Notes under the pieces: model-generated | Database searches by the model: none | Told to the model about the DNA's origin: nothing | Seen by the model: the letters and a program-made list of their open reading frames with translations, nothing else | NCBI RefSeq assembly: GCF_003334305.1 | Contig: NZ_QOWS01000039.1 | Reading direction: 5' to 3' (one strand) | Source of the DNA: Escherichia coli | GTDB lineage: Bacteria > Pseudomonadota > Gammaproteobacteria > Enterobacterales > Enterobacteriaceae | Length of the DNA: 22,909 bases | Translations under genes and position numbers: made by a program | Shown here: one piece after another, positions 17,081 through 17,493 of the stretch | How positions within the stretch are numbered: the stretch's first letter is position 1 | Layout of the letters: every line of letters begins with the position of its first letter

Positions 17081-17139
17081 GCTGTTGGAACAGGAGGTAT
17101 GGGGCATGTTTGCGTATTTTTATGGAAAGAAATAACCCA

Positions 17140-17493
17140 ATGACGGCGTTACTCTCCAACTGGGTTGACGCGTGCTGCCTGTTAATGGCTCCGCTGAATG
17201 ATGCCCTATACCGTTATGTGATGAACACCCGCCTGGGAACCATCCACGGCACGTCGGTCGGCGAACTGCTGGCGTGGATCAAAGAAGATGAAAACCCTCG
17301 CAAAGGCGAGATGGTGCTGATTATTGAAGGCCATAAAGCCCAGGATGACGAACTGCCCGCCGATGCGCTGCGTACGCTGGCGCTGTTGTAGGCTGAGCTG
17401 CCGTTGAAGCAAGCGGCGGCGTTGGCGGCAGAAATCCACGGAGTGAAGAAGAATGCGTTGTATAAGTATGCGCTGGAACAGCAGGGGGAATAA
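17140..17493 (+). pseudogene. rsmI: 3' remnant of an rsmI-like (16S rRNA 2'-O-methyltransferase, tetrapyrrole-methylase fold) gene with an in-frame amber codon
   Basis: ...[50 protein letters not shown] then TAG (17389-17391), then in the same frame [33 protein letters not shown] to TAA 17491-17493. This matches the RsmI C-terminus as I recall it. There is no room upstream for the N-terminal two thirds. The 5' boundary is uncertain. Confidence 0.55.

Follow-up and report, generated by a model that had tools for sequence, protein, structure and literature searches.

The locus examined here raises the question of how the 3' end of rsmI, the gene of a 16S rRNA methyltransferase, came to lie just behind the last gene of a cargo operon in the window, that is, in the whole 22,909-nucleotide stretch of Escherichia coli DNA that was analyzed, and whether it records the loss of the host's own gene. 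A preliminary description had read the remnant as the right boundary of a genomic island and had concluded that the island, or a deletion associated with it, destroyed rsmI. We arrive at a different answer, to which we give a probability of about 90%: the locus is a non-functional scar, internal to an island integrated at serX, in which the tail of a foreign rsmI gene is joined to a small internal remnant of an IS66-family tnpC gene.

Extent and Domain Content of the rsmI Fragment

The remnant is a 3' pseudogene fragment of rsmI at 17233..17493 on the + strand, comprising E. coli codons 202-286 plus one extra Glu. Nucleotide alignments with E. coli and E. hormaechei rsmI place the first homologous codon, Trp202 of 286 residues, at window position 17232/17233, and 261 of the 864 nt of the gene (30%) are retained. 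The frame from 17077 (translation of 17077-17496) encodes an RsmI C-terminal peptide that is interrupted by a stop codon. With this stop read as Q, the peptide matches residues 217-303 of the 303-residue chain 9pzg_V in the PDB (E = 5.6e-44), followed by 5hw4_A as a second match (E = 6.7e-26). The amber codon, TAG at 17389..17391 (+ strand), aligns in the PDB alignment to the Q in LALLQAELP of E. coli RsmI, the position of Gln254 within the RsmI_C domain; this codon is CAG in both E. coli and Enterobacter rsmI and has become TAG in the fragment. Past the amber codon the frame runs on to a native-type TAA stop at 17491-17493, and the peptide ends in ...GE before the stop as in Enterobacter RsmI. 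Just past the junction the fragment carries a 1-nt deletion, the loss of one A (GGGAAACC to GGGAACC). The alignments to RsmI (PDB, Pfam, and nucleotide) bear out the earlier reading of this segment as only the C-terminal third of an RsmI-like gene, with TAG where a Gln is expected and an in-frame continuation to a native-looking stop.

The sole Pfam match of the fragment is PF23016 (RsmI_C HTH), which is complete (1-46 of 46, E = 7.7e-19); the same scan gave no match to the TP_methylase catalytic domain (PF00590, ~residues 1-220). The fragment is accordingly RsmI by homology, based on PF23016 and the PDB match, and it has neither the catalytic domain nor an uninterrupted frame with its own start codon. 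From its sequence we conclude that it cannot be an active enzyme. PGAP annotates 17239-17493 in the same sense, as '16S rRNA methyltransferase; internal stop; incomplete; missing N-terminus'. An antisense ORF of 113 aa that overlaps the fragment (17206-17547) is the usual artifact of GC-rich coding DNA.

The Native rsmI Gene of the Host

The window is E. coli DNA: over 16900-17700, 290 complete genomes of this species match it across 80% or more of the interval. The fragment shares 84-86.5% nucleotide identity with native rsmI in 5425 E. coli genomes, well above anything expected by chance; native copies are 90-100% identical among themselves, with at least 95% identity in 5407 of the 5425. 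Native rsmI, located between lpoA and yraK, is full length beside lpoA in 5424 of 5426 complete E. coli genomes, and the gene that was thought to have been destroyed is therefore intact elsewhere on the chromosome. The fragment occurs at at least 95% identity in 516 records, and the fragment-bearing records among those listed have two places each, one for the fragment and one for the native gene. In agreement with this count, a query with the rsmI fragment finds 5948 places in 5428 records, i.e., ~520 extra places, close to 516. A query of all complete E. coli genomes with the 5' 600 nt of Enterobacter rsmI finds 5427 places in 5425 genomes, and the possibility, left open in the preliminary description, that a full-length rsmI is contiguous at this site is not borne out. 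The query found no second rsmI 5' part, such as an island predating the truncation would carry, which indicates that the island copy of rsmI exists as a 3' stump alone. The fragment has neither of the two properties of the host locus, near-identity to native copies and a position divergent from lpoA. The host rsmI was never hit, and the fragment is a foreign copy of the gene.

An Enterobacter-like Chromosomal Block in the Island

The fragment is one end of a captured chromosomal block at 17233..22592, composed of rsmI', an alpha-galactosidase-like gene, a patB/malY-like gene, a malX-like gene, and kbaY'. The whole block forms a single collinear 5.37-kb alignment, at 86% identity, to the chromosomes of Enterobacter hormaechei and E. 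cloacae, and the collinearity stops at 22592, inside kbaY. The gene next to the fragment (17560..19473, - strand) is intact and convergent with rsmI; it encodes a 637-aa protein, labeled 'enterotoxin' or 'alpha-galactosidase' by PGAP, with 89-92% amino-acid identity to Enterobacter orthologues that adjoin intact rsmI. Orthologues that are 74-90% identical are found in Lelliottia, Kosakonia, Yokenella, Raoultella, Kluyvera, Klebsiella, Buttiauxella, Pluralibacter, Yersinia, and Serratia. It is followed by a PatB/MalY-family C-S lyase (19463..20641, - strand; NCBIfam TIGR04350, 364 bits, cut-off 340), a MalX-type PTS IIBC transporter (20650..22221, - strand; NCBIfam TIGR02004, 723 bits, cut-off 632), and the 3' fragment of a kbaY-like class II aldolase gene (22335..22592, - strand), a pseudogene in PGAP and the next deletion breakpoint of the block.

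The gene order of E. hormaechei is agaS, kbaY, malX-like, malY/patB-like, alpha-galactosidase-like, rsmI (convergent, 287 aa), and lpoA. The tail-to-tail arrangement of rsmI and the alpha-galactosidase-like gene, with patB/malY-like, malX-like, and aga genes close by, is found in Enterobacter, Lelliottia, Kosakonia, Raoultella, Klebsiella, Buttiauxella, and others, and in more than 30 species the two genes are direct neighbors, with rsmI intact. All rsmI alignments to the window from these species begin at 17232-17235, which fixes the breakpoint independently. In E. coli strains 503025, N39, and UTI89, the captured block runs on into kbaZ', agaR, and a truncated garD; we take this continuation to be the order of the enterobacterial garD-aga-rsmI region, given the K-12 map and the native-locus data presented here. 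The block genes to the right of the fragment are present in ~10% of E. coli genomes. The island therefore holds a captured and decaying piece of the chromosome of another enterobacterium, and rsmI' is its truncated end.

We are cautious in naming the donor. Compared over 255 nt, the fragment resembles E. coli rsmI (at most 86.5%) slightly more than Enterobacter rsmI (at most 84.6%), and the attribution to an Enterobacter-like donor is based on synteny and the flanking genes and not on the fragment itself. A scan of species-representative contigs did not yield a closer donor, with no species representative exceeding 86% nucleotide identity to the block. A plasmid search likewise provided no credible vehicle: three full-length 'plasmid' matches to the block proved to be mislabeled chromosomes or fragments (4.8 Mb, 1.0 Mb, and a 38-kb single-cell contig), and the remaining plasmid matches are to the IS66 piece or to ordinary rsmI.

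The block has several further features. A mosaic patch at 18020-19519 covers the 5' two-thirds of the alpha-galactosidase-like gene, where the window and N39 are 85-92% identical while the flanks are 97-100% identical; the window allele is in part (19070-19519) closer to Enterobacter (~90%), and the patch points to replacement by recombination with a divergent allele. At 22586-22647, exactly at the deletion junction between the kbaY 3' and kbaZ 5' fragments, is a 30-nt inverted repeat (93% complementary, 2-nt loop), one arm of which encodes the KbaZ N-terminus in the wrong orientation, identifying it as a small inverted duplication at a deletion scar. The 637-aa protein matches no NCBIfam model, and its distant relatives, at 31-47% identity, are found in metagenome-assembled genomes of Verrucomicrobiota, Planctomycetota, and Gemmatimonadota; given the adjacent PTS transporter and C-S lyase, the 'enterotoxin' label looks unsupported.

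The IS66 Scrap and Its Two Junctions

The DNA directly to the left of the fragment is an 87-bp internal fragment of an IS66-family tnpC gene (17146..17232, + strand), which is fused in frame to the rsmI fragment. It shares 92-95% identity with tnpC of ISEc8/ISEc23-type elements in thousands of E. coli records and corresponds to positions 2998-3084 of the EDL933 tnpC CDS, which spans 2324-3909. The scrap includes neither end of the gene and neither end of the IS; of a complete IS66 element (tnpA-tnpB-tnpC with terminal inverted repeats), only 87 bp of the tnpC interior are present, and PGAP annotates it as an incomplete pseudogene. Between the mkoB stop and the scrap lies a 65-bp spacer (17081..17145); it has no match in the compared sequences and is absent both in N39/UTI89 and in the divergent Mokosh locus of strain BE2-5.

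There are two junctions in the region, at 17145/17146 and 17232/17233, and a GC step from ~45% to ~55% at about 17100-17200 coincides with the junction. The tnpC-rsmI junction reads ...GTGATGAACACCCGC/CTGGGAACC..., with 1 nt common to both partners, and the 30-mer that spans it is GTGATGAACACCCGCCTGGGAACCATCCAC. The 1-nt microhomology and the tnpC interior mark the junction as the product of an illegitimate deletion rather than as a transposition end, and the tnpC scrap is a dead internal piece between two illegitimate junctions. The fragment had been described as starting within ~100 bp of the cargo operon stop; it is indeed close, although the distance from the mkoB stop (17078-17080) to the rsmI homology is 152 bp, made up of the 65-bp spacer and the 87-bp tnpC fragment. 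Similarly, the right junction that had been placed between 17081 and ~17230 corresponds to two real junctions but not to an island boundary. Nor is the cargo operon the partner of the truncation: that partner is the tnpC scrap, and UTI89 and N39 have the same tnpC-rsmI pair without the operon.

The Ends of the Island at serX

Positions 1-1791 of the window are 98.9% identical to the region downstream of K-12 ymdE-ycdU-serX, including 181-bp repeats that end in the last serX nucleotides. The K-12 homology ends at 1791, at a 14-nt serX core (TGGCGGTGAGGGGG, 1778..1791, + strand) that is the reverse complement of the 3' end of the tRNA-Ser gene serX, which places the true left end of the island at 1791/1792. 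The tyrosine integrase gene of the serX island follows at 1952..3154 (+ strand; 'tyrosine-type recombinase/integrase' in PGAP), and its product matches the NF007246 domain (E = 3.5e-55, 187 bits) under the curated cut-off of 434. The core has two copies in the window, at 1597 and 1778; with as many as two mismatches allowed, the window has no copy outside 1597-1791, and thus none near the fragment. The window also has no repeat of the fragment and no att-like direct repeats. The segment 17081-17232 is accordingly not a boundary or attachment site, with no core, no repeat, and an accessory right flank.

The right end of the island is seen in strain 503025 (NZ_CP025892.1), which is 100% identical over 16900-17700 and shares the gene order of the window, apart from extra IS insertions. 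The fragment is located in this genome at 959,909-960,163 and serX at 1,039,634, followed by ghrA; the DNA between them includes IS elements, aspartate racemase, dcuA-like, virK/capU, the fec operon, Ag43, and a CP4-44-like module. The integrase adjoins a copy of the serX 3' end, and serX itself is intact at the far end, which makes this a serX-integrated island of ~96.5 kb in 503025; the scar lies ~17 kb from its left end and ~79 kb from its right end. The proposed right boundary is therefore internal. Direct repeats of 14 bp at serX have been described for the SRL island (PMC7545054).

The serX-proximal region has a repeat structure of its own. Two copies of a 75-nt unit lie at 1536-1791 with a spacing of 181 bp, each composed of a hairpin and a T-run and ending in the last 14 nt of serX, and at least four such units are found downstream of serX in K-12. 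The only Rfam match of the window, RtT (RF00391, 46.3 bits, 1597-1733), falls in these repeats, indicating that serX has an RtT-like repeat array like tyrT. A tRNA scan of the window found no tRNA.

The Same Scar in PAI-serX of ExPEC

In NMEC strain N39 and UPEC strain UTI89, the left module of the island leads directly into a tnpC scrap of 117 bp, whose right junction is the same, and then into the rsmI fragment with the same TAG; beyond it are the alpha-galactosidase-like gene, the malY-like gene, aga remnants, garD', and the sfa fimbrial operon. Positions 1676-10018 and 17146-20731 of the window share 93-98% identity with N39, and UTI89 is identical to N39 over the tnpC'-rsmI' scar, with the same annotated gene order through the left part. 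The internal structure of the window is thus common to a named PAI-serX. The scar is located at 1089411-1089788 in UTI89, inside the published range of PAI-UTI89-serX, 1080842-1142536 (PMC7545054). The RefSeq labels of its two pieces in UTI89 are 'IS66 family transposase, incomplete' and '16S rRNA methyltransferase, internal stop, incomplete', and the other island-bearing genomes examined are flagged in the same way. We found no literature report of a truncated yraL/rsmI in a pathogenicity island. The scar is already annotated as pseudogenes, in a known island family, and is an ordinary decay scar. Since both island types have the identical junction and the same amber codon, truncation and amber predate their divergence. 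Contigs that are 100% identical to the island also occur in metagenome-assembled genomes labeled Collinsella sp. and Lachnospiraceae bacterium, where they probably represent binning contamination.

A Mokosh Type I Cassette in a Variable Slot

The cargo operon to the left of the scar encodes MkoA (10677..15647, + strand; 1656 aa) and MkoB (15644..17080, + strand; 478 aa). MkoA matches the PADLOC profile PDLC03921 with 2212 bits (protein residues 1-1652, profile positions 1-1603 of 1607) and is composed of NERD-like, kinase, and Upf1-like helicase parts, the latter two of which are also matched in NCBIfam. MkoB matches PADLOC PDLC03923 (E = 1.9e-151). Mokosh type I is defined by MkoA (kinase and Upf1-like helicase) together with an adjacent MkoB (PLD-type nuclease) (bioRxiv 10.1101/2022.05.11.491447). 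The operon has both components and is a Mokosh type I cassette, with a function in defense predicted from its sequence. We considered whether it is the Mokosh system of ETEC H10407 that has been tested experimentally and dropped this identification: the published MkoA has its helicase at residues 460-1215 and represents a shorter subtype.

Cargo varies at the slot that holds the cassette, located at 10019-17145 immediately to the left of the scar: the slot measures 7.1 kb in the window compared with 100 bp in N39/UTI89; the window retains 30 bp less of tnpC. The cassette is present at at least 99% identity in ~300 records (313 with any match, 312 genomes), all of which reach the end of the query at 17145. 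Strain BE2-5 has a 94%-identical cassette in a similar integrase/Gp2/DUF3987 element at another site. The difference between the island types reflects either a gain in the lineage of the window or a loss in the UTI89 lineage. Upstream of mkoA, at ~10169-10504, PGAP annotates in 503025 part of a gene for a 'TOTE conflict system archaeo-eukaryotic primase domain' protein, with a frameshift, which suggests that an earlier defense cassette in the same slot was overwritten.

Two other features of the left module deserve mention. A 605-aa ORF beside the integrase (3341-5158, - strand; GC 32-34%) is split by IS2 in 503025 and has an internal stop in N39; it matched nothing in NCBIfam or PADLOC and may be an uncharacterized island cargo or defense gene. 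NCBIfam also provided no family for the alpha-galactosidase-like protein, MkoB, the YfjI-like protein, or the Gp2-like protein. Two diverged direct repeats at 6668-7425 (74-78% identity, ~466 bp spacing), which precede the YfjI-like gene (7191-8642) and extend into its start, look like an internal duplication of the 5' region of that gene.

Sequence Evolution of the Fragment

The fragment differs between the window and N39 by six nucleotides, five of which change an amino acid, giving a dN/dS of 1.5 that is derived from these six substitutions only. For the adjacent alpha-galactosidase-like gene, which is intact, dN/dS is 0.06-0.10 (0.10 for window and N39), as expected under purifying selection. 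The substitutions in the fragment, small as their number is, fit neutral drift under relaxed selection. We found no promoter-like site in 16900-17700, and a terminator scan of the same interval revealed one antisense terminator-like hairpin, no more than expected by chance.

Origin of the Scar and Alternative Explanations

From the observed pieces, junctions, and island ends we infer an order of events and a part for the IS66 element in the deletion or the capture. A stretch of chromosome from a lineage ~86% identical to Enterobacter would have entered an island integrated at E. coli serX. At one end of this stretch, an illegitimate deletion would have joined the middle of tnpC to rsmI codon 202 at the 1-nt microhomology, with the loss, in the same event, of lpoA and of the 70% of rsmI that encodes the catalytic part; the fusion may have taken place either in the donor or after arrival in E. 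coli. The leftover 261 bp would have decayed neutrally, accumulating the 1-nt deletion, the change of CAG to TAG at codon 254, and an excess of amino-acid changes. The fusion and the amber codon precede the split of ExPEC PAI-serX (UTI89, N39) from the island type of the window, and the Mokosh cassette to the left of the tnpC scrap makes what is an internal module junction resemble an island edge.

That resemblance is what speaks for the view that the host's own rsmI was cut short when the island inserted, or through a deletion linked to that insertion, and that the remnant is the right junction of island and chromosome: GC content steps up at ~17100-17200, the remnant comes right after the last cargo gene, and the DNA to its right resembles ordinary enterobacterial metabolic genes. 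However, only ~10% of E. coli genomes have those right-hand genes, whose identity to Enterobacter is 86%; 5424 of 5426 genomes retain an intact native rsmI at lpoA, to which the fragment is only ~85% identical; the island extends another ~79 kb to serX; and the scar exists in UTI89/N39 without the cargo operon. We regard this origin as refuted. Integrative elements of this kind are well known to insert at the 3' ends of genes, and one could therefore propose that the fragment is the displaced attachment remnant of an element that targeted the rsmI 3' end in the donor, with the original 3' end at the far border. In agreement with this proposal, the remnant lies at that end of a CP4-57-like module (integrase, HTH, YfjI, Gp2) which is farther from the integrase. 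It is nevertheless very unlikely, given that the junction partner is the interior of tnpC and not element-end DNA, that no part of the fragment has a second copy in the window, that the integrase adjoins the serX core, the site actually used, and that rsmI is intact and element-free in more than 30 species with synteny. An assembly or chimera artifact, which has nothing specific in its favor, can be dismissed: 290 independent complete E. coli genomes cover the junction region (16900-17700) over at least 80%, 300 records match it at 99% identity or more, and the tnpC'-rsmI' junction recurs in a second island variant that is ~95% identical over the region.

The remaining alternative assigns a function to the pieces. 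The tnpC and rsmI pieces are in frame, an ATG is located at 17140, and no + strand terminator-like site occurs between the mkoB stop and the fragment, so that a chimeric ORF of 83 aa (ATG 17140 to TAG 17391) or its RNA could be read through from the Mokosh operon and function, for instance, as a small regulatory product derived from part of the RsmI HTH domain. We consider such a function very improbable. The amber codon truncates the RsmI_C domain after ~13 of its 46 residues, no promoter-like site was found in the junction region and, by eye, no convincing ribosome-binding site upstream of 17140, dN/dS between the variants is ~1.5, and in UTI89/N39 the same piece follows a different gene and has a different 5' part. 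The more specific idea that the Mokosh operon transcript includes the chimera, and that the chimera has acquired a new role, be it as a peptide of 83 aa or as a structured 3' UTR influencing expression of the defense system, is similarly improbable. It is much more likely that ExPEC PAI-serX and the ~96-kb serX island of other E. coli derive from one ancestral island, ~10 kb of which was captured from an Enterobacter-like lineage.

The scar thus provides an example of chromosomal DNA of another enterobacterium captured into islands, and it has modest value as an evolutionary marker: the tnpC'-rsmI' junction together with the amber codon is a clean synapomorphy that ties ExPEC PAI-serX to the serX islands of other E. 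coli lineages. It also calls for caution, in that GC steps and truncated housekeeping genes can mislead the calling of island borders when, as here, the truncated gene is itself imported.

Comparison with Known Systems

RsmI (YraL; PDB 5HW4, 9PZG) is the E. coli 16S rRNA C1402 2'-O-methyltransferase. The fragment shares its last 85 residues at ~90% amino-acid identity (8 differences in 81 comparable codons); unlike RsmI, it lacks residues 1-201, i.e., the whole SAM-dependent catalytic domain, has no start codon, and is located away from lpoA. The likeness to the IS66 family (ISEc8, ISEc23) is confined to 87 bp of the tnpC interior at 92-95% identity, and, in contrast to IS66 elements, the scrap is without tnpA, tnpB, the rest of tnpC, and terminal inverted repeats. 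The Enterobacter-type neighborhood has the same gene order and orientation as the block in the window, with 86% identity over 5.37 kb; in Enterobacter-type chromosomes, however, lpoA and yraN come after a full-length rsmI (287 aa), whereas in the window rsmI is cut at codon 202 and the block resides in an E. coli island.

The closest known counterpart is PAI-serX of ExPEC (PAI-UTI89-serX, PAI-CFT073-serX, PAI-RS218-serX; PMC7545054), which uses the same insertion site, serX. Both it and the window have the left module (integrase, 605-aa ORF, HTH, YfjI, Gp2-like), the tnpC'-rsmI' junction, and the amber codon; the alpha-galactosidase-like gene, the MalY/PatB gene, and the aga/garD remnants come next in each. 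The island of the window departs from PAI-serX in that a Mokosh type I cassette of 7.1 kb separates its Gp2-like gene from the tnpC scrap, its malX-like gene is intact, and its tnpC remnant is shorter by 30 bp. The onward cargo differs as well, consisting in 503025 of aspartate racemase/dcuA-like, fec, virK/capU, and Ag43 genes, where PAI-serX has the sfa fimbriae instead.
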